The notes beneath the pieces are model-generated. The model ran no database searches, was not told the origin of the DNA, and was given only the letters and a program-made list of their open reading frames with translations. Shown piece after piece: positions 41,707-62,114 of a stretch of DNA of 64,000 nucleotides. Every line of letters begins with the position of its first letter. Within the stretch, counting starts at the first letter, position 1. The translations under genes were made by a program, and so were the position numbers. This DNA comes from a virus (taxonomy: Duplodnaviria; Heunggongvirae; Uroviricota; Caudoviricetes): IMG/VR virus record IMGVR_UViG_3300021256_000003, positions 64,001 through 128,000 of that record, one strand, 5' to 3'.

Positions 41707-42717
41707 TCAAGCATTAGGATTTTCGTAAGCTGCAACGTGGCTTTCATACTCACCAGTATCAGAAGTATCACCATCCTTATTAAGGTCACCAAGGTTATTT
41801 AAAGTTAGTCCTGCATCGGTAACAAACTTATCAGCAAAAGCTTTAGCTGGAGTACCTGCCTGAGTATAATCACCCTGCACCCAGAATACGTGAGTAGTAG
41901 TACTCATACCCTCATGACCAATAATAGTTAATGAAGGTTTAGCCATAGAAGGAGCGCTGTAGGTTACAATGAACTGAGAGTACATAGCACCAACAACAGG
42001 AGTCTCATCTTCGCGTAGTCTGTAGAACTTAGTGTTTTCAGCAGTAGGAACACGAAGGTTACGAACAATATAATTGTAAGTACCAAAAGCATTTTTACCA
42101 TAAGTATAAGCAGTTACAAAAGAAGTATCTGTATCACCATACTCCCAAGAAGCAATCTTATCAGTCTCAAAAGGAGTATCAATAGTAATAGAGACGCTCA
42201 CAATACGCTGGAACTCATGAGTACCATTGATAATGATACCAGTTGTACTATTAGCAGTAATAGTGAAAAGGTCACGACCATAAAGTGCAAGAGCATATTT
42301 ATTAACAGCTTCAGTAATTTCAGACACAATGCTACTGACAGTTGAACTAGAAGTTACTTTAAAACCAATAGAGAAAGGCTTACCTTTCTTATACCAATCG
42401 TTGGCATAAATAGACTCCTCGCTACCCTCAAGCTGAATGTAGAAATTCAGGCAAGCAGTAACTGAAGTTAGACTATTAGCAGTAAGATAACTCTTAATAT
42501 CTGTAAGAGCAGTGCCAAGAGCAACAGTTGCAGAGGTAATAACGGCAGTGTTAGGTTTAGCTGCATAAATAGATCTGATGTATTTCTTTTCAAAAGTAAG
42601 ATCACGAGCAATACGAAGAATTTCAGATGTGCTATCGTATTTAATTACTTTGTCATCAAGGGTGCCATTAGCACCAGGAGTTGCATTAATAATGCGAGTT
42701 GTTGTCCAATTAAACAT
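41707..42717 (-). CDS. Abundant structural protein, probable auxiliary capsid protein (336 aa)
   Basis: Intact ORF, no TAG, beta-rich, with its own terminator. Size and position match the crAss auxiliary capsid protein (inferred from synteny). Confidence 0.6.
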   Translation of the reverse strand: MFNWTTTRIINATPGANGTLDDKVIKYDSTSEILRIARDLTFEKKYIRSIYAAKPNTAVITSATVALGTALTDIKSYLTANSLTSVTACLNFYIQLEGSEESIYANDWYKKGKPFSIGFKVTSSSTVSSIVSEITEAVNKYALALYGRDLFTITANSTTGIIINGTHEFQRIVSVSITIDTPFETDKIASWEYGDTDTSFVTAYTYGKNAFGTYNYIVRNLRVPTAENTKFYRLREDETPVVGAMYSQFIVTYSAPSMAKPSLTIIGHEGMSTTTHVFWVQGDYTQAGTPAKAFADKFVTDAGLTLNNLGDLNKDGDTSDTGEYESHVAAYENPNA

Positions 42718-44045: not shown

Positions 44046-44921
44046 TTATTCTTCTACAAACATATCAGAATAAGCATCTTTTGTTAGAATATCTAATGTC
44101 TGTTTATTTTTAGGAGCTTTCATCCAATCAATGATTGCGTCATCACTACCTCCAAGCGGCACTTCTCCGTAAAAGTAAATACCCTGAGTTTTCTTAATAA
44201 CTCCTTTTTCTTTAGCGGTAATGAGCAAGAAACGAAGTCCTAAATCACCACCAGTATAAAGGTCAATAATCTTTTCGGGAGTCTTTTCTGCGACTGAGAA
44301 AAGGAATTCCTCTACATCTGCTGCAGGTTGATTACTCATATTTCTACCAAGAACTTTAGCCATACGAAGCCATCCATCATATCCCTTATTATCATTACTA
44401 ATATAATTTTGAGCTTGTAGTATAAGTTTCTTACGAGTAAGTTTCTTGCGAGCTTCAAGACCAGGACGCTCAACATAATATTCAGCTGCTCCATAACGTG
44501 CTGTCATTCCATATGCATCATACATACGAGAGTCGGGAGTTCCATCAATTAAGAAATTTCCATTTTCATCAACAGCATCTCTACTTTCTGCAATTGCTCT
44601 GCAATTTTTAATACATTCCCATTCATTTCTACGGAATGGATTATTTAAATCAAAAACTGTTCCATCTTGAATTATAATATCATGATTTTCAGGAATAAGA
44701 GCAGCAAAATCGTCAGGAGAAAGTTTTTTATCTGCATCCAAATAAATCATTTTTCCTGTAGAAGGATCTACTTGTCTTACACATTCAGGATACCTTCCCA
44801 TTTTATCTTTTTGAGGCTGAATAGTTGTATGCTGTCCACGTTTACCCCAAGCATTACGTAGAACAATAATATTAGCCATAATATCACCGTTCTGAGTTTT
44901 ATTTACTTTTACATTTGCCAT
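44046..44921 (-). CDS. Conserved crAss structural protein immediately downstream of MCP (291 aa)
   Basis: Intact TAG-free ORF ending at TAA, in the syntenic position after MCP. Confidence 0.7.
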   Translation of the reverse strand: MANVKVNKTQNGDIMANIIVLRNAWGKRGQHTTIQPQKDKMGRYPECVRQVDPSTGKMIYLDADKKLSPDDFAALIPENHDIIIQDGTVFDLNNPFRRNEWECIKNCRAIAESRDAVDENGNFLIDGTPDSRMYDAYGMTARYGAAEYYVERPGLEARKKLTRKKLILQAQNYISNDNKGYDGWLRMAKVLGRNMSNQPAADVEEFLFSVAEKTPEKIIDLYTGGDLGLRFLLITAKEKGVIKKTQGIYFYGEVPLGGSDDAIIDWMKAPKNKQTLDILTKDAYSDMFVEE

Positions 44922-45003: not shown

Positions 45004-46416
45004 TCAGTCTTCAGCGTAGACGATAAAGCTCTTATAAGGATTGAAAACGGCGATACCACCATAACCCATAATGGTTTTAGCACCACCGGCAACCATTGTG
45101 CTTACTCTTTCAACTCCATAACCTGGACCATCTAAGCTAGAAGGCATATAGTCCTTACCCTTCAGTGAGAAGCACTGGATAGGAGGAGTTGCAGAGGTCT
45201 TTCCGCCAGTAAAATCAATACACATACCGAAAGGCATATTGTATTCGCGGCTAAGAGTCTTATCAGCTTTAAAGGATATTACATTTCCATTATATTCATA
45301 GGAACTAAAACTAGCACCTACTTTCCAACGGCTACCACCATTAACTTTTGAGTAGAAAAGAGCACCGTCAGTCTTCATCTCAGCAAGGAATTTCATTAAT
45401 ACACGATTAATGATACCCATTAATTTGCTGTTACAAACAAACACAAAATGGTTACCTTCAAGATTATCAGCCTTCTCTACCATAGCATCCATGATTTGAT
45501 GGAATGTATTAATGGTAAATTTAGAAGCGTAAAGCTTATTGCAGTAACGCTCGATCTGAGGAATTAGTCCCTCACCAATTTGGATTTCACGACCAGTATT
45601 TCTAGTACTGATTGTAGCTTTTCCGCTCACATCCATATTTGTTTTGCTCATTAAAAGCATTTGCTCACGAGCAGTCATAAAGTTGTCAGTCAGAACTTTG
45701 TCCATAGGATCCATCTTATAGACCTTCTCACTAAGAGAGTCTGCAGTCTTACCCTCAGCAATCTTAATAAGAGTATCTTCCATAAGTTTATATTTGTCAG
45801 AGAAGGTATCGTCAACTCTGAACAGAGTCATAAAGTTGCGCATTACCTCGAAATTTGACTGATATTTCACAAAACCACAATCTGACATTTCAGGTTTAGC
45901 ATTACCGATCCAGTGGCAAGTCATACCGACTTGACAAGCAGAAGTATCAAGAACTGAACGATAATCATTATCGATCAAACGCACACAGACTGACCACATG
46001 TTATCAGCTTTGCGTACAGGAGTAGTAGTGACAATACATTGCTGACCACTATTATCAATCTTGAAGATTTCCTCAAGCTGGAAATAGTTTTCATCAAATG
46101 TCATCTCAATCTCACTACCATCAGCACCATTCTGGGTAGGAACTTCTGCAAAATGGATTTTCTTAATCTGATTAACTTCTACATTCCACTCAAAATATGT
46201 AGAATCAATATTATTAAATTGGTTTAATTTCTTTTTACTGTCACCCATCCAGATATTGCCAAGCAAATCGGTAAGAGCAGTAATGGTATTTTCAGGATAA
46301 AGACGTGCAAGAACACCCATACGGTGGGCTTTAGTACCTAAAAACTTACCAAAATCTTCTAGTGTTCTTGTACGACCCATTTCAGGTCTAACAGTTGTAT
46401 AATTTGCTACTAACAT
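45004..46416 (-). CDS. Major capsid protein (470 aa)
   Basis: Intact TAG-free ORF. N-terminus MLVANYTTVRPEMGRTRTLEDFGKFLG and motifs FEWNVEVN, MRNFMTLFRVD and GEGLIPQIER resemble crAss-like MCPs. Followed by a strong terminator. Confidence 0.85.
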   Translation of the reverse strand: MLVANYTTVRPEMGRTRTLEDFGKFLGTKAHRMGVLARLYPENTITALTDLLGNIWMGDSKKKLNQFNNIDSTYFEWNVEVNQIKKIHFAEVPTQNGADGSEIEMTFDENYFQLEEIFKIDNSGQQCIVTTTPVRKADNMWSVCVRLIDNDYRSVLDTSACQVGMTCHWIGNAKPEMSDCGFVKYQSNFEVMRNFMTLFRVDDTFSDKYKLMEDTLIKIAEGKTADSLSEKVYKMDPMDKVLTDNFMTAREQMLLMSKTNMDVSGKATISTRNTGREIQIGEGLIPQIERYCNKLYASKFTINTFHQIMDAMVEKADNLEGNHFVFVCNSKLMGIINRVLMKFLAEMKTDGALFYSKVNGGSRWKVGASFSSYEYNGNVISFKADKTLSREYNMPFGMCIDFTGGKTSATPPIQCFSLKGKDYMPSSLDGPGYGVERVSTMVAGGAKTIMGYGGIAVFNPYKSFIVYAED

Positions 46417-51783: not shown

Positions 51784-52281
51784 TTATATGGACGTCTCCG
51801 TGTCAATTTTCTCGGCATACGTATTAAATATATCAGTTAGTTCTTCATTTATATTATCTTTTAATATTCTTCCAGCTTCCAAGACAGAATTTATATGTTG
51901 AGCCATAGCTTGACCAAAATCAGATAATTCAACATAAATATATACAGGATTATTATCTAATTCAGCTTTTATTTTCATTTCAGTTAAACCAGCAGCTTTG
52001 GCTATTAAAAAATCATTTTGGTTTTCAAGAGTTAACCAAATTTTATATCCATTATATGAAAATGCAATAATATCGTTAGTAATTTCAGAATTAATAAAAT
52101 CCATTGCCATATCTTTAACTTCTTCTAAAGATGGTTTATAATTGCAAATCACATGGTAACAACTATATTGCTGGTCTTCAATCTCTTTAAATCCAAAATT
52201 TATACAATAAATTTCTTTATTTGGGTTATATTTATAAAATTTTGGTGCGTTAGGGGAATATCCTATTTCTTTAGAAATCAT
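51784..52281 (-). CDS. Hypothetical protein, DUF4376-like (165 aa), translationally coupled to the DGR RT
   Basis: Intact ORF. Segment FSYNGYKIWLTLENQNDF resembles DUF4376-type phage proteins (family recognition only). ATGA overlap with the RT stop. Confidence 0.55.
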   Translation of the reverse strand: MISKEIGYSPNAPKFYKYNPNKEIYCINFGFKEIEDQQYSCYHVICNYKPSLEEVKDMAMDFINSEITNDIIAFSYNGYKIWLTLENQNDFLIAKAAGLTEMKIKAELDNNPVYIYVELSDFGQAMAQHINSVLEAGRILKDNINEELTDIFNTYAEKIDTETSI

Positions 52282-53324
52282 TGGCCAAATTGTTTGAATT
52301 TTTTAGATTTACAACTAATATATCTATAAGGCTTTGCAGGACACTATTTTATAACTCGATAGAATAAACGAGAACAATTAGCATGTTTGCACATACCATA
52401 AAAACTTCCCATTAATTCACGGCTTCTTTTCTTACTTTTAACTCTTGATAATTTACGAGCAAAAGATTTTTTAATACGTTTGCGAAGTTTAATATGAGTT
52501 GGATAAACAACATATCCAAGAAAGTCTAAACCACAAGTTAATGGAAAGATAGCTTCACTATTCTTAATCGTCAAACCTATCGATTCAATTTTTTCATGTA
52601 ACTTGTGGCGATATTCCCATAATTTTTCTTTACTATCCGAAAGAAAAACTATATCATCGCAATAACGAAAATAATATTTTACTCCTAAATAATCTTTAAA
52701 ATAGTGATCAATTAAATCAGATAAAAGTAAATTAGCTAAAGCTTGCGAAGATCGTAAACCTATACTAATACCATATCCTGTATCACTAACGGCAACAACA
52801 CACTACTTTAATATAGTATTTACTTGCCATTCTGGAAAGTATTTATCAATCAAATCAAATAAAACTTGATGAGGAATACTTTCGTAGAATTTTTTAATGT
52901 CTGCCTTATATACATACTGAGTTCCGACAGGATCTGAAGTTACTACTTTCCAAATATATGAAAGCATATCTGCAGCTCCTCTATTTTTAATAGCAGAACC
53001 AGTAGTTCTAATATATCGTTTCTCTAATCTAGCATCAATTACATTCATTACAGCACTTAATGTAATTCTACAGTAAATAGAGAAAATTTGAATATTTCTA
53101 ATTTTCGGACCTTCTTTGATTAATAAACTATAATATGATCCTAAATCAAATTCGCCCTTCTATAACTTCTAACTAACTTCTCTAGCAAATGTATCTAAAT
53201 TAGCTAATATCTGCCGACCTTGTCCAGTAAGTCTTTTTTCCGGCTTATCTAAAATATTATCGACAGCACATTTAATATTATCCAGATTTGTAATTTCTGG
53301 CATTAGATTGCCTATTTTTTTCAC
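52278..53324 (-). CDS. DGR reverse transcriptase (348 aa, GTG start, code 15)
   Basis: Begins (V/M)KKIGNLMPEI. Motifs KADIKKFYESI, GISIGLRSSQ (DGR-type GxxxSQ), RYCDD at 52653-52667 and DFLGY. In-frame TAGs at 53169, 53160, 52803 and 52344. TGA at 52278. Confidence 0.93.
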
Positions 53325-53507
53325 AGGCTACAAATTTTCATAAGGCTTTTACCCAGCCATATTCCTTTACACAGTACTAATCGCTATTGGTAATTGCCTT
53401 TTTGTTTTTTGGATCAATTAATAATATATTAATCGAAATCCAAGGTCCTTCGATGCTAGAACAATTAATTTAAAACTAATTATTCTATAAATTTATATTG
53501 CTTATTA

Positions 53508-53614
53508 ACAACTGAGAACCGTTGTTCGCATTGACGTTGGCTGAACCATTGTTCAGGTTCACATAAGCGACTCTGCCATTGGCATTGCCGTTGTTACTGG
53601 AACGACTAAGGCAA
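53508..53614 (-). repeat. DGR template repeat (TR), 107 bp
   Basis: Aligns without gaps to 53864-53970. All 22 mismatches are at TR adenines on the sense strand. Rich in AAC/AAT codons. Confidence 0.95.
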
Positions 53615-53720
53615 ACTATTGTCTCGTTTTTGCTTCGAAGCAACCTATTAGGAATATAATTCCCTAACATACCAATAGTATATATACTTGGCGACTGGTC
53701 CAAACATTTATTAATAATAA

Positions 53721-53782
53721 GTTTAAGAAAGGTAGAGAAGACTCATTTTTTATGGAATCTTCTCTACCAAAAAATCTTAAAC
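53721..53782. other. Stem-loop/cruciform downstream of VR (candidate DGR homing element and/or terminator)
   Basis: ggtagagaaga (53731-53741) pairs with tcttctctacc (53758-53768), flanked by gtttaaga/tcttaaac. Confidence 0.6.
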
Positions 53783-53807: not shown

Positions 53808-56800
53808 TTAAGCATCTAAAAACGCTGATAACGATTCAGCCACTTCAATGTTACCTGAGAAGGACAACCGAGAACCGCAGGCCGCACTGACGCTGGCCGA
53901 ACCATAGGTCAGGGACACATAAGCGACCCCGCCACAGGCATAGCCGTAGGCACCGGAACGACCAAGGCAACGGTTAGCTGACTCAGCATAATAATGTCCG
54001 TCTCCATAAGAATCAGCATAAGCCGTTTCCTTACTATACACACCCAAAGTATCAGCATACCTGCCTCCTCTCATAAGTGCAATAGTGCCTCCAGACGTAC
54101 CCTGAAGACGATTATAAAATCTTCTAATAACTTTATTTTGTGCTTCAGCAAGTAAATCAGGATTTGGAGTATCCGAACCTTCAATATTAAGTCCGCCATG
54201 AGGTTTTGTAAGCTACATAAGATAATTAACGGTTCCTAAATTCCACCAACTATTACCTATAACTTCCCACTTATCTCCTTGGAAATTATCATATCCCATT
54301 ACATTCGTACTATTTACTGTGCCTCCCCAAGTTCCATCAAGTTTATAATAACCAGCAATCTTTGGTCCGTTACCATTACTGAAACTAGTAGAAGTATTAG
54401 TATCATTCTTGTAATTAACATACCAATTCTCTGAAGTAGCATTCTAAGTATAGTCGGCATCTTTTTTATGTCCAGCAGTATCACGCATTCCAAGAAAATC
54501 AGTTAATCCCGTGATTTTTTGATAATCATGAGTTCCTGTACCACATTGCCATTGGCTATTTCTACATCCATATTTGGCATAATATAGATTTGCTACATCT
54601 TTCGATTGCTCATAAGAAAATGCGTGGAAACTTCCACCATTTTCATTGCTAGCACCTCTACGATAGCAGTTTTCTTGCATTATTCCGAAGTTAGTATAAG
54701 CTGTTGCAGCATTACTTCTAGAAAAATATGCAATCTGTCCTAAACTATTTGTACCGCTTGATGCTTCATATACTCCACCTAGACTTTCTTTATGGAATAC
54801 CCAGAAAGGCTCCCAATCTACTGGATTATTACTATTTGTCATCCAAATATAATTCCATAGATAAGTATCATCAAATCCTCCTGCACTTTGTGTATCCCAA
54901 AGTGATGAAGGGATTGTCACATATAAGTATTTGTACTTATTTTTATTATGATAAAGGAATGGTGAATATAAGGTATAACCACGACTTTGAGCATCTAATG
55001 TAGAAACAAGCGATGTATATCTTACAATATTATTAGAATCAACAATAGCAAGACATGTTACATTTTCAACCCAATATGCAGGGAATTGAATATGATCATA
55101 TTCAGAAATGTCAATACGAATAGTATTATATGCGCTATTTTGTAGTAGAGACACATCTCTGCGATTCAAATTATTAATAGTAGTATTACTTGCAATATAA
55201 TAATTAGGTACATATAATATACTTTCGGAAGAATTTGCTAAATTACCATATTCTACTGAAATTAGATCTTCTAATTTAATTAACTATCCTTTTGCAGCAA
55301 TTTTTTCAGGAATAGTTCCATCAACTGTAGGTAATTCATCTGATTTATCATTAGTACTGAAGAAGATATAACGAACGCCATTTTGATAGTCATTTACTCC
55401 TTTATAATAGTATTCTGGCTCTTTTATCCAGACATCATATACAGGTCTTGCAGAATCACTACCTCCACGAATATAAGATTGTGCAGAATTATCTTCGCCG
55501 TTTAAGAAGTTGTTTCTATTATTATCATCAAGTTGTAATAGAATTTCAGTATCAGTCGAAGCCTTATACTTACCTATATATGCATGTCGTTTATTTAATA
55601 TAATACCAATATGACCACTTGGTTTATAGTCTGGAAGTCCAGATCCATATCCAGTGTTGTTGTCAAGATTAGTAATATTATACATATCATTAATCCAGTT
55701 GGCAAAATTTCCTTCGTTGTCTAATGTATATTCAGTAAATTTAATACCAGTATAATCTGGAATATTTACAGACTAATTAGTTAATTGCTTGATCCAACTA
55801 AATAGTTCTGAATCTTCAGACATATAAGTTATTTCGTCAAAAACTTGTAAATATTTAAAGCTATTGATTGTTATAACAAAGTCATCTTTACTAATATTAT
55901 GATTAAATTCCCAATTAGAATTTTTTGCTAAAACTGCTCTGATTAAGTCTAATTGATGACCATCACCATTATAATTATCAATATCTAAAGATTTAGGATA
56001 TAAATTATTCTCAGCATCAAAAATACAGAATCTTTCAAGGAAGTAATCAATATCAATACCTGGAGAGTTCTTAATTGTAATCTAAGCAATTGAATTAGTA
56101 TTACCATTTTTAGAACCAAATTTATATCCTGTCGGTCCGTAGAATTGGATTGTATTAGGATGATCTCTATCGAATATTAATGACGTACAAGAATCAATTG
56201 TAATACCTTGAGTTGGATATGGAATCTTTAATTCAGTTAAATTAGCAGAAGAAATGGTTGAAATTGATGTAATAGAATTTTGACTATCAATATTCAAATC
56301 TTCCATATATTGAGCTGTAGCTAAATTTATCTGATTCCATTGACAAGTAATAGAACTATTAGATGGATTAGTAATATGGAAATGTTTTAGTCCTATCAAA
56401 TGAGTTCTTGGTGAACCCTCTAGATTCATAATATTTCCAGTACTAGAAACCCCCATTGTACTCAGATCGAAAGTAATTGTTTCTAACTTAGATAATGCAG
56501 TTGTATCAAACGAATCACCAATTTCAATGACTGCTTCTGTCGGGAAATTAAATTCATGACTATTAGTATTTGGACTAAATACTAAAGCGGACATATTCTC
56601 TATTCCAGAAAATATAGTAGCTTCAGCACTCGACGCATCACTTACCCAAGATGTAGTACCTGTTTTAGTACCTACAGAGCTTAATTGACCATTAACCCAA
56701 CATTTATCTGCTAGAATACCATAAGCACTAAATCTTCCAGGAAGACTTGTCTTACTAAATCTGAATCCACACATATCCGATTGTTCAGAACCATATTTAC

Positions 56801-59800
56801 CATATAGGTACGAATAACATTTATCAATAAGAGTATTTCTAAATAGGTATGCTGTACCTTGAATATTATCGATAAATGAAGTAGTAAATGTATTTGTATT
56901 AGCATTTCTTAATGAATAAGACCATTCAGTAATAGGTAATAGATACTTTAATTCTTGGTCTTTATTGTAGATAATATCTGGCCAGTTATTAGCGATTTGA
57001 TTATATCTATTTTTCCAAGCGTTTTTAGATTTATTGGTTAATAGAACACTAGCAGCTCCGACTAAAGTTGCAGGAATTTCTCCGTTATCAACAATTTGTC
57101 CATATGCGCCATAAAGGGTATCGCGAACAAGTTTCCATAAACAATTAGAATGACCTGCAAAATTAGGATTTCCTGTATTATCAAGAGTTTGTTCTGTAGA
57201 AGTATAAGGAATAGTAAAATTACCCTCATTATCCAATGACTTACCGTTATTATTTACACCTAAAACAGTATCGCTGTCATAAGGTATAAAATTCCAGTGA
57301 GCATATTCAATACCATTTTCACTATTACTTAATAAGTTAGTAGTGTTTAATGCATTTGCTTTTTCAGTTTCAGTCGCACGAAGTTGAACATCCCAAGTTG
57401 CTAAAGTGCAGTTCTTAGTTCTTTGGTCAAGAGCTAAATAAATTTCAGTATAAATATACCACAAACACAAGTTCTTAACATTGAAGTGTTTAGAAACTGT
57501 ATTTAGAAATTCATTTGACTAATAGATCTTACTTGCAGTAACTGGTCTTGAATCAGAACCATAATTTAGTTCGTCAGTACTCTTTGGCCAGTATAATTCA
57601 CCTGCGTAAATACCTCCTTCGTAGATAAATCCGCCGACAGTAGAATTCCAGGTAATAGTCTATACAGCAACATTATTTTCATAATGTGAATACTTAGTAT
57701 TATTAGTATTTGGAACTACAGTCCAATAACCTGTGTATAAAGCATTTCTCCAAGATTCAATGTCAGTTTTCCATCCTTTAAATCCACAAAGAACGTAGTC
57801 ATAATTCATAATTTTAGAATCCCAATATCTAAATCCAGGAGTTGTTGTGAAACTCACCCAAATATATTGACAAAGTTCTGCCCATTGTTGTGCAATATCG
57901 TCTGCCATAGTAACATCATGTCCAGATTTACCTTTCTCAATATTTTCTTCACAAGTATCAATTAAATCAGTTAAAGTTTCACCATCTGCATAATCAAGAA
58001 CTTCTTCTAAAGTATTTCCATCCCAAACTGGTACATTATAATTTCTAACTTCCCAACATAATTCAGTTGATGAATCACCATCACCTGAAGCTTCTTTGGG
58101 ATTAGCTGGATCAGAAGAATCATTATGGGTATTTACTAAGGTACTATCAAAGTAGTCTTTCACCATTTGTACAGTCCAACCAGTTCCTGTATTGTTATTA
58201 AGATTCCAATTAAGCTTATAATCTCCAGGATAAGAAATATCATACTATGAAGTACTACCTTTTAATATTTCCGGAATCCAGTTTGTCCACAAAAGACGAT
58301 TAGTACCAACTTCAATACAAAGATTAGGCACAGTGTGATCATAATATGATAAACCACCTTCTTGTGGTGTAAATTCGTATAATCCGAATAGATCGCCAGA
58401 ACTTTTCTTATCTTGGTTTAACATATATTTACCAAGATAGTTAGGAGTATTTTCTGTATAATATAACTTTTGTAATTGGTCTTGCCAATAATAATATCCG
58501 TCTCCATTCGCAGTTCTACCAGGAGTTTCTGGGTTAGTATTTATCCAGAAAACATCAATAGGAAGTCCTTCAATACCAGATTGATAACTAGTTTCATTTC
58601 CATCTGAATCCTTAATACTATGTGAAGGAGGAGCAAAGTCCTTATAAGTATCATACATAGAATTAAGAGCAGAACAAGTGCCAGTATTATGAGTTTGAGA
58701 ACTATCCACAAAGTCTGCTTTTAAACAGAATACCTTGGAATCTCCAGCTTCAGTTAAAGCAAATCCGCTATGGACTTTGATACCACTATTACTATTAGCT
58801 ATTTTAACAACAGCTGCTCCTTCGGGAACTGAGAAAGTCTCTTCGGTTTCTGTACCTTCATTAATAGTTACTAAATGAGTTGAAGGGTCAAATTGTAAAG
58901 TAGATATTGATGTTCCTTTCTTATATTCTCCAGCAAGTTGTACTTTATCTACAGCATTTAGAACTTCACATACAAATGCTCTTGATAAGACAACATAATA
59001 AGTTAAACCATTGTAAATAAATGATATATCTGTAGTCAATTTTCTGTTATTATTTGTAGTAGAAGTGAATTCAGATGCATTCACTTGAAATTCAATAACA
59101 TCATTAGACGCTTCGGAACCTAATACTGAAGCATAAGTAATATGGTTAAAACTAAATGTTAAAATACCATTATTATATGCCATGTAATCCGGATATAATA
59201 CACAATTAGTTGGATATTTATAAATATTTTTAGACTTTTTATAAACAGGATACCAAGTCATTGTATTATCGGTATATCCGATATCACCTACTGTAGGAGA
59301 AGATGACCTTTTTCCCTACGATTTCATCTTCATATACCAACGAATATTATGTATTGGATATACACGAGATGATGTTCCTTGAATTTGGTCTTCGGGATAT
59401 AAAGAAAGAATGTTTTTACTAAATCGATTATTAGTATTTAATGAGATATTTCCGTTCTCATCTGTAATCATATCTTTTGTTACATATGATTCACGCCCAG
59501 GAAATAATGCATGGTACTTTGCAACGATAGCATCCTTTTTCTACAGACTATTGTTAAAAGCACGCATATCACCATCAATTAGTAATACAGCATGATCAGT
59601 ATTATAACTAGTAAAATTAATATTAGGAGTATCAATGGTTTCAAGTAAGTTATTTCTTGCAATTTTATTACCAATTGTTTCGCTTGAACCATAAGCAGTA
59701 TTACTTAGTCCTAAAACTTGATCAGAAGTAAGAGCTTGATCATAGGCTCTCACGAATGCAATATTAATATTTGTAGAACTACTAGAGAAATTAATATCGG

Positions 59801-62114
59801 AATTATAATTGAATGCTCCATTCATCATAGTCTTTGATGAACTTCTAGTACCATCTATATAAATATGGAAGTAAACATCATTAGTATATAAAGAACGGCC
59901 TGCTTTCTTACTATAGAATACGGTATTGCCATTTGTCCATTCTCTACTACCATTTACTCCTTCACCTTCCATCACAACAACAATATGTACCCAACGACCA
60001 TAACTGATAGGTGCAGCAGCAAATCCTTTAGAAGATTGGTCAAATTGATATCCAACCTTAACACGATCAGGAGAAATTGCAAAAACATTTACCCCGTTGT
60101 AATTTGCTGTAATACAATCTAAAGAAGTATCCAAACAATTATTAAATTGTACAAGCATTTCAATACTTCTTCCTAATTGATTATGATTACCAAAAATTCC
60201 TGGAAGAGTTAATGCAGCACCATTAGATAATTGTAAATAAGCAGGCTATCCACTTGCTGGGTTTGCAGGATACCATCCTGAACCTACTAATGAATATACT
60301 ACATTAGTAAGCACACCAATTCTATTCGTTCCGGCAGTAGCATCTGCATAAATATTCACCCAATGATTTCTATCTGTTTGGTTATTTGACTTATATTTAG
60401 CATTATATTCATATGAAGGATTTGAACCTATAGGAATTACTCCCGAAACTTCTGATATACCTAATTGAATACGTTTATTATAAACTTCTTCATCGATAGT
60501 AATATAACTATTTGTATCAGAAAAGTTAATAACGTTATTTACCGTTCCTTCTCTTCCTACTACGTTAATTACATCTTTCGATACTTCTGTAGTTCCATCT
60601 AAGGCATTAAATGTAATAGGTATCGTAGTTGACGGAGCATTGAATGTTTTATAGTTAAATGAAATTGTACTATACTATGTTACGTGTAAAGTAGGTTCAT
60701 AGGTATAGCTAGAGAATGCTGTTACTTCTTCACCAGAATCTGAATATTGTACACAAATTGCGGAACCGACAACATTACCAACAGGTAATTCAATATACAA
60801 ATAATTAGAGGTGATTCCACTTAATTCAGATATAATTACAAATCTATTTATAGTATCTTGAACACATTCCGTTTTGTAAATAGTTAAGGTAGTATTATTA
60901 TTAATACGTTGGCCAACTACTTTAGAATTTCTAGCAGTTAAATTATATAGAGTTGTAATGATACCAGAAACATTAGCTTGTTCACCAGTAATGGTTAATT
61001 GTGCTCGTGATGGAGAAGTACTGCTCCAGTTAATTCCAGAAGTTGTTCCGTAAGAAGTAATATTACTTACCCAACTTAAAGATAATTGAATTAACTAAGA
61101 TTCGTGAGTATTTGTTGCAGTTGAAGTAACTTCAAAGTCTGCATTATTACCATCTTCAGACCATCCAGTCTCAAGAGTTCCGACAACTTTTACGTTATTT
61201 CTATCACCGAAATCCATAACTAGTGGAGTACCAATAGCTCGTGCTTGCGATTCTTCTATAGGAAGTTCTATAACACGAGTATCAAAAGGTTCAGAGGAAT
61301 TATTAGTATAGAATCTAAAAGTTAAAGTGGACCCACCAATATTAAACTCTGAAGCTCTATCCGCAGCATTAATTAAAGTAACGCCACATTGATAATTCAA
61401 ATAAATGGTACTTTTCTTATTAATATTACTAGTATGAGTTAAATTTCTTGCTTCGTTTGACAAGGCAAACGTTAAAGTAGGATAAATAATTTGTTTACTA
61501 GCAACACCAACAATCGGGTGAGCTGGAGTATAATAATATTGATTTTGGTTATTAACGAGTCTTAAAGCAATCTAACCATAAGACAACGTTGTCATATTTG
61601 TAGGTTCACTGTCAACCCATACTCCAATAGATTCAGCTTGACTTGGTACTGAAGTAGTAAAATTATATTCTTTGATATATTGATTCCAAAACTCCGATGC
61701 TGATACAGTTTTTGTTGGATCGACACCAGTAGTCTTTGATAAAATATCCTATTGGATTTTTAATAATTCTCCAGTTAAGTTAATTGCATTGTTATCATTC
61801 GCATCCGGTGATAATAACCCTTCAGTTGGATTTGTTGGATCCGATGCAGCTGCAATTCTTATACCACTAATCTAGTTTTTTAGTTTTTCTTGTAAATATG
61901 CCTCAATAAGTTCACCACTCATCTAATAGGTAGTATCATTTGTATAACCAGTATCAGGAATTGAGTAGTCCCAAGGTAAAGACGAGACAAAACTTAAATC
62001 TGTAAGAGCGATTTCTTCTCCATGATATATGATACTCAAACAAGCAACACCATTTAGTGTAAATGTTCTTTGAGTTCCGTCGCTAGGACCAAGTGTTAAT
62101 ATATTTTTCGCCAT
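53808..62114 (-). CDS. Giant tail fibre / receptor-binding protein, DGR target (2768 aa): LamG-like, CotH-kinase-like and C-terminal C-type-lectin-fold domains (code 15)
   Basis: ATG at 62112-62114. Nine track fragments (61923, 61095, 59541, 58245, 57660, 56082, 55284, 54444, 53808) share one frame, and only the last ends at TAA. LamG-like WVHIVVV...IYIDG...RAYDQAL. CotH-like QGTSS, LKADF..SS..HNTG, DQRTKN and YDSDT. CLec/FGE-like GYDNFQGDKWE...RLSF. Confidence 0.87.
53864..53970 (-). repeat. DGR variable region (VR) at the 3' end of the tail-fibre gene
   Basis: Encodes CLGRSGAYGYACGGVAYVSLTYGSASVSAACGSRL, versus CLSRSSNNGNANGRVAYVNLNNGSANVNANNGSQL for TR. Confidence 0.95.

Follow-up and report, generated by a model that had tools for sequence, protein, structure and literature searches.

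The reverse transcriptase (RT) gene of a DGR in a ruminant gut phage carries four in-frame TAG codons, and these appear to be ordinary Gln-type codons of the recoded gene block around them, with neither an RT-specific signal nor a dedicated switch. The stretch of DNA analyzed, referred to here as the window, is 64,000 nt long and corresponds to bases 64001-128000 of a virus record of 175,026 bp, which has a 127-bp terminal repeat, is rated complete, and derives from ruminant gut samples. The account that we consider quite probable is that an intact RT of a Hankyphage-type DGR, one lacking Avd, sits inside the block of virion genes of a complete, ~175-kb crAss-like phage from ruminants, and that its TAGs are everyday codons of this block. 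The block would be written in code 15, with TAG read as Gln by a phage tRNA(CUA), and the four RT TAGs would have been gained by the same drift as the TAGs elsewhere in it. The full-length RT and the target fibre would then be translatable only while the suppressor tRNA is active, and DGR mutagenesis would be confined to the suppression phase, like every other late function. The last of the four TAGs, at residue 327, would be a sense codon that closes the folded RT core, and the tail behind it would be a retained linker. Such a phage would be a clear case in nature of a DGR that stays functional with an RT gene that the standard code cannot read, and would provide indirect functional evidence of TAG translation in an uncultured phage. 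DGR finders and RT surveys that use code 11 would be expected to miss such cassettes.

The cassette and its RT gene

The cassette is ordered as target gene with VR, TR, RT, and a DUF4376-like gene (Table 1). All 22 mismatches between TR and VR fall at TR adenines, which occupy 29 of the 107 TR positions, and the VR ends 54 nt ahead of the target-gene stop codon. A sequence-only reading that preceded this analysis had placed at least eight TAGs of the target gene upstream of the VR, and the full count agrees, with all 17 lying on that side. A Pfam search with the last 369 target residues returned no family, so a lectin fold of the VR domain has no Pfam support.

The RT frame is opened by reading TAG as sense, and we found that homology stays in this one frame through the TAGs. 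Pfam RVT_1 matches residues 70-256 (1.3e-14), Bacteroides phage RTs align to residues 1-321 at 41-46% identity in tblastn, and the Bordetella DGR RT 8ub7 is matched at 3.7e-24 in phmmer. Both DGR-type motifs, [LIV]GxxxSQ and YxDD, are present, and three of the four TAGs (residues 52, 55, and 174) precede the YCDD at residues 221-224, as had been read at first sight. An AlphaFold2 model of the RT reached a pLDDT of 80.7, and its top fold match in the PDB was again 8ub7, with TM-scores of 0.70 and 0.74. The GTG at 53324 lines up with Met1 of the code-11 RT homologues. Translation might alternatively start at a TTG (53331-53333, minus strand) with a fifth TAG behind it; the TTG-TAG pair is kept in L004, a Logan contig whose RT is 76% identical to that of the window and is itself TAG-recoded.

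Table 1. Positions of the cassette features, related genes, the suppressor tRNA, and early genes ending in TAG (window coordinates unless another sequence is named)
Feature	Position	Strand	Remarks
DUF4376-like gene, 165 aa, TAG-free	51784..52281	(-)	start overlaps RT stop (ATGA)
DUF4376-like genes	window 51784-52281; L004 1809-2303; L003 4302-4787; L002 4283-4777		
DGR reverse transcriptase gene	52278..53324	(-)	348 codons + TGA, GTG start
21-residue C-terminal tail (328-348) past TAG327	52281..52343	(-)	kept in L004
RT TAG, residue 327	52344..52346	(-)	CAA (Gln) in L004; Lys in 108/118 code-11 homologues
Catalytic YCDD, residues 221-224	52653..52664	(-)	
DGR hallmark GxxxSQ (GLRSSQ, residues 189-194)	52743..52760	(-)	Gln is CAA here, TAG in L004
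RT TAG, residue 174	52803..52805	(-)	AAG (Lys) in L004
RT TAG, residue 55	53160..53162	(-)	GCT (Ala) in L004
RT TAG, residue 52	53169..53171	(-)	TAG also in L004
TR-to-RT spacer, non-coding	53325..53507	(-)	holds possible alternative TTG start (53331-53333) and a TAG
Template repeat (TR)	53508..53614	(-)	
11-bp hairpin, then T-rich run	53731..53768	(-)	just downstream of target gene; also in L004
DGR target gene, 2768 aa, 17 in-frame TAGs	53808..62114	(-)	VR at 3' end
Variable repeat (VR)	53864..53970	(-)	varies within and between samples
tRNA(CUA)	genome 148025-148098 (L010 28-98)	(-)	ARAGORN; Rfam tRNA model 53.7 bits
Early genes ending in TAG	genome 6961-7665, 11896-12717, 31813-32739, 36652-37533, 43524-44177, 156284-156712, others		

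A blastn search of the phage collection with the RT gave no match. Scans of IMG/VR and JGI metagenomes recovered only long-form RTs at 37-40% identity, none of which needs read-through and one of which ends in TAG as its stop. A short-fragment search for recoded relatives gave few matches, including one contig on which the RT is divided over three called genes. Contig L016 was considered as a recoded relative and was rejected, as it carries an N-truncated RT remnant.

The spacer between TR and RT contains long blocks identical to those of L004, and was observed to be better conserved than coding DNA. It is probably the structured part of the DGR RNA that is recognized by the RT. At the other end of the RT, the 21-residue tail and the ATGA overlap with the following gene are as the sequence-only reading had described them. 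This following gene is homologous (E ~ 1e-12) to the ~160-aa gene behind the RT of Hankyphage and of Bacteroides phage BT-TP2, where it is annotated DUF4376. A DUF4376-like gene of ~160 aa thus stands directly behind the RT in the window phage, L004, Hankyphage, and BT-TP2, with three TAGs in L004 compared to none in the window phage. Among the neighboring ORFs, no Pfam match to Avd was found, the one below-threshold match being not Avd-like. The Hankyphage and BT-TP2 records likewise annotate no Avd, which is thus not universal among DGRs, and AVD genes were reported in only two zeta crAss-like phages, Lera and ct1yV3 (PMC12386605). Given that no Avd is seen in these cassettes, the DUF4376-like gene may serve this DGR lineage as an accessory factor.

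The late block and the reading of TAG

Stop-to-stop ORFs cover 56% of the window when TAG is taken as a stop, and 97% once it is read through. The TAGs are concentrated in a late block (genome 56.8-146 kb), at 1.36 per 100 codons compared to 0.38 elsewhere. Within the late block they make up 28.7% of all TAG, CAA, and CAG codons. This block holds the genes for TerL, the portal, the major capsid protein, giant virion proteins, and a LysM lysin. TAG is found in TerL, portal, and LysM lysin, while the exonuclease and a DnaD-like initiator are free of it. TerL and portal match PHROG families, and the major capsid protein shares 25% identity with crAss-like major head proteins and 44-48% with those of two phages of 117-122 kb. 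Outside the block, read-through ORFs have their TAGs at the very C-terminus, as true stops, or before likely starts, with the exception of homing-endonuclease genes that contain TAG. About eight early genes were seen to stop at TAG with a back-up TAA or TGA 1-21 codons further on, so late read-through would append only a short tail. It thus appears that TAG ends translation early on and that the late block depends on its suppression, and such an early region readable in the standard code with a recoded late block is a published pattern in crAss-like and other gut phages (PMC7886860; bioRxiv 10.1101/2021.08.26.457843).

The genome encodes 26 tRNAs, one of them with a CUA anticodon, and no release-factor gene was found in it. 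The tRNA(CUA) is flanked on one side by a TAG-free cluster with the DnaD-like initiator and on the other by a gene for an HNH endonuclease whose codon 42 is TAG. In the 40 kb scanned around the tRNA, no match to a theta or HDV-like ribozyme attained the Rfam gathering score. The tRNA has an unpaired U1-C72, a G73, and an encoded CCA. The unpaired U1-C72, G73, and U35 fit the GlnRS identity elements of E. coli tRNA-Gln. We rejected global similarity to the phage tRNAs as a guide to its isotype because the measure does not discriminate: the tRNA(CUA) is only 62% identical to the phage tRNA-Gln, and other phage tRNAs are equal or higher.

TAG appears to be read as Gln, a reading that is supported by several alignments and for which we regard L004 as decisive. 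L004 places a TAG at the invariant Gln of the catalytic GxxxSQ motif, which is Gln in 118 of 118 homologues, and TAG and CAA are exchanged between the relatives, with CAA in L004 at the TAG327 of the window. In TerL, TAG725 faces Gln in 110 of 111 homologues and TAG528 in 86 of 120. The mean Gln fraction at the TerL TAG columns is 0.22 compared to a background of 0.049 (4.5-fold), evidence that is partly circular, as Gln in some homologues may itself be TAG-encoded. One TerL codon behaves differently (genome 135372-137768; L009 7372-9768, minus strand): TAG681 faces Ala in 118 of 120 homologues, which is unexpected for Gln. The RT itself was also compared with its code-11 homologues. Gln stands opposite the window's four TAGs in 6, 0, 2, and 1 of 118 homologues (residues 52, 55, 174, and 327), in variable columns otherwise occupied mainly by polar or small residues. 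The check thus came out Gln-compatible, as the sequence-only reading would have it, and while these four codons appear by themselves to be no proof of Gln, the amino acid is directly shown in L004.

Could TAG be decoded as some other amino acid? The mostly non-Gln residues opposite the window's RT TAGs, the conserved Ala opposite one TerL TAG, and a suppressor tRNA not clearly derived from tRNA-Gln would all fit such a decoding. We nonetheless consider it very unlikely, in view of the GxxxSQ codon of L004 and the two Gln-dominated TerL columns, the TAG/CAA swaps between relatives, the match of the tRNA(CUA) to the GlnRS identity elements, and the metaproteomic finding of TAG as Gln in crAss-like phages (PMC9523058).

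Not all late genes contain TAG. The major capsid protein gene and two neighbors (window 45004-46416, 44046-44921, and 41707-42717) have none, and at block density the probability of this absence is P = 0.0017, 0.019, and 0.010, respectively. In these three genes, CAG is about as common as CAA or commoner, while the block as a whole uses CAA five times as often as CAG. Either highly expressed genes avoid TAG, or the three genes are a recent gain from a standard-code phage.

Activity of the DGR and the end of its RT

Compared with L004, the RT shows a dN of 0.198 and a dS of ~1.6 (dN/dS ~0.12), and every RT segment behind each of the TAGs is constrained. Goat and bovine gut contigs from public runs depart from the window mainly in the VR, where the departures are concentrated, while the RT differs by one to three changes only. 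The population evidence on VR and TR consists of contigs, not raw reads; at this contig level, 14 of the 16 listed VR differences between samples lie at TR adenines. One bovine sample holds two VR alleles, present as alternative 134-nt contigs between unique flanks, and an independent RT contig from this sample (L005) keeps all four TAGs. It was also observed that a TR change in the bovine sample, 53539 G>A, is mirrored at VR position 53895, exactly 356 nt away, in both VR alleles, which points to a template mutation copied from TR to VR. Contigs from two RNA libraries span portions of the RT and the TR (53424-53616), not the VR side. As these libraries may include DNA, the contigs were left out of the evidence for transcription on account of possible carry-over.

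From these comparisons, the RT gene appears to be alive and the DGR intact and working. The opposite reading would take the TAGs as true stops, the RT as a pseudogene, and the DGR as a fossil, and it can point to the code-11 translation, which breaks the RT into pieces of 51, 81, and 76 aa. We regard it as extremely unlikely. Purifying selection is strong across all of the RT segments, there are neither TAA or TGA stops nor frameshifts in 348 codons of DNA with 31.5% GC, the VR varies at TR adenines within and between samples, with the transfer of a TR change to the VR, and TAG read-through is required by the whole late block.

The sequence-only reading had further proposed that TAG327 may be the ancestral stop of the RT, and that its read-through now yields a 21-residue tail by which the RT is coupled to the gene behind it. 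The structural model has features that would suit this idea, given that the confident fold stops at about residue 325 and residues 328-348 have low pLDDT, and a 326-aa product would be close in length to the 328-aa Bordetella RT. However, the comparison with relatives refutes it, and the proposal is now highly improbable. In L004 the codon is CAA, and the tail behind it is conserved (pN 0.14, pS 0.49). The 108 of 118 code-11 homologues that have Lys at column 327 run on for ~105 residues more and share the basic S-F-K motif that comes next. L004 and the code-11 Hankyphage likewise have the ATGA overlap of the RT with the DUF4376-like gene. The most fitting reading of the tail is a piece of linker that stayed behind when the extra C-terminal domain of the 433-aa homologues was lost. 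The RT of the window lacks this ~105-aa domain of most Bacteroidales and Hankyphage-type homologues, yet its DGR appears active.

Suppression dependence and known systems

The first reading had argued that the DGR has adopted the code of the phage, and the codon counts support this fully: TAG makes up 31% of the Gln-type codons of the RT, close to the share in the late block. It had also held that neither a full-length RT nor a full-length target is made if TAG is a stop, and this stands, with early genes that stop at TAG and a tRNA(CUA) encoded by the phage. Its further claim that diversification is tied to TAG suppression holds in one part and is unsupported in another. The RT and the target do need TAG to be read, but a gate specific to the DGR finds no backing, as the RT has 4 TAGs compared to the 4.7 expected from late-block density, and only one of its four TAG positions (TAG52) is common to L004. 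A TAG count at block density together with turnover of the positions makes suppression dependence a property of the late block, and not of the RT.

An adaptive gate would give these codons a purpose of their own. In this scenario, the RT TAGs, mainly the N-terminal pair, would be selected to delay or throttle RT synthesis, so as to hold mutagenesis of adenines back until the code has been switched and then to keep it low. The first 55 codons do contain two of the four TAGs, with TAG52 being the one that L004 shares, and the use of TAG as a stop in early genes makes a temporal switch plausible. The TAG-free capsid gene and its two neighbors suggest that TAG cuts yield; if these genes avoid TAG, suppression may be costly, which would leave room for an effect on RT dosage. 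Against this, the RT has no more TAGs than the block would predict, and L004 differs at the other three positions and carries, in the catalytic GxxxSQ, a TAG that is not found in the RT of the window. The TAGs are spread nearly uniformly along late genes (KS p = 0.22), with no robust 5' bias. The RT lies inside the virion-gene block, where transcriptional timing alone probably makes it late, and the tRNA(CUA), whose neighbors are TAG-free genes of replication type, may be switched on early or midway through infection. A scan for sigma-70 promoters was uninformative, the host being likely a member of the Bacteroidota. On balance, we think that such a gate is unlikely. The same holds for its extension to the whole cassette, which we would call improbable: that the TAGs of RT and fibre are kept as a timer and dose limiter, with retrohoming taking place after the switch, on replicated genomes near packaging and at low RT, and with the cassette dead in a standard-code genome.

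With the RT TAGs taken as ordinary codons of the late block, temporal gating of the DGR would follow as a corollary of the published model of late-gene recoding, and we claim no new mechanism. Amber codons in DGR RT genes have already been reported in zeta crAss-like phages, with seven RT genes under amber suppression (PMC12386605). That study treats the TAGs as an annotation obstacle only, and does not address timing, TAG turnover, or natural activity. We found no paper that ties recoding to DGR timing. What the present case appears to add is of modest value, namely the natural activity of such a DGR and the TAG at the catalytic Gln in L004.

The zeta crAss-like phages (PMC12386605) resemble the window phage in genome features and in the make-up of the DGR. 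They have genomes of ~145-192 kb, many tRNAs, a suppressor tRNA(CTA), and amber recoding. Their DGR targets a tail-fibre gene and mostly has no Avd, and the RT has the GxxxSQ motif and a variable C-terminus. In contrast, they come from the human gut and the window phage from the ruminant gut.

The closest named RTs, at 41-46% identity, are those of Hankyphage (Bacteroides phage p00, BK010646) and BT-TP2. Both phages share with the window the order of target with VR, TR, RT, and a ~160-aa gene, without Avd, and the Hankyphage RT likewise has a stop codon that overlaps the start of the following gene. Unlike the window phage, they are temperate and siphovirus-like, have ~42-45 kb, and use code 11, and their RTs of 431-434 aa have the ~105-aa extra C-terminal domain that is absent here. 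The DGR RT of Bordetella phage BPP-1 (PDB 8ub7 series) is the best PDB match in sequence and fold, with 328 aa compared to 348, and its system has the same A-specific mutagenesis from TR to VR. It differs in needing Avd, which was not found here, in its identity of 24%, and in its standard code.

Finally, phages with recoded late or lytic genes (bioRxiv 10.1101/2021.08.26.457843; PMC7886860; PMC9523058) share with the window phage an early region that the standard code can read, structural and lysis genes rich in TAG, and a suppressor tRNA. Neither bioRxiv 10.1101/2021.08.26.457843 nor PMC7886860 mentions DGRs or reverse transcriptases. With the present case, the DGR and its mutagenesis would join the functions for which the code switch is needed.
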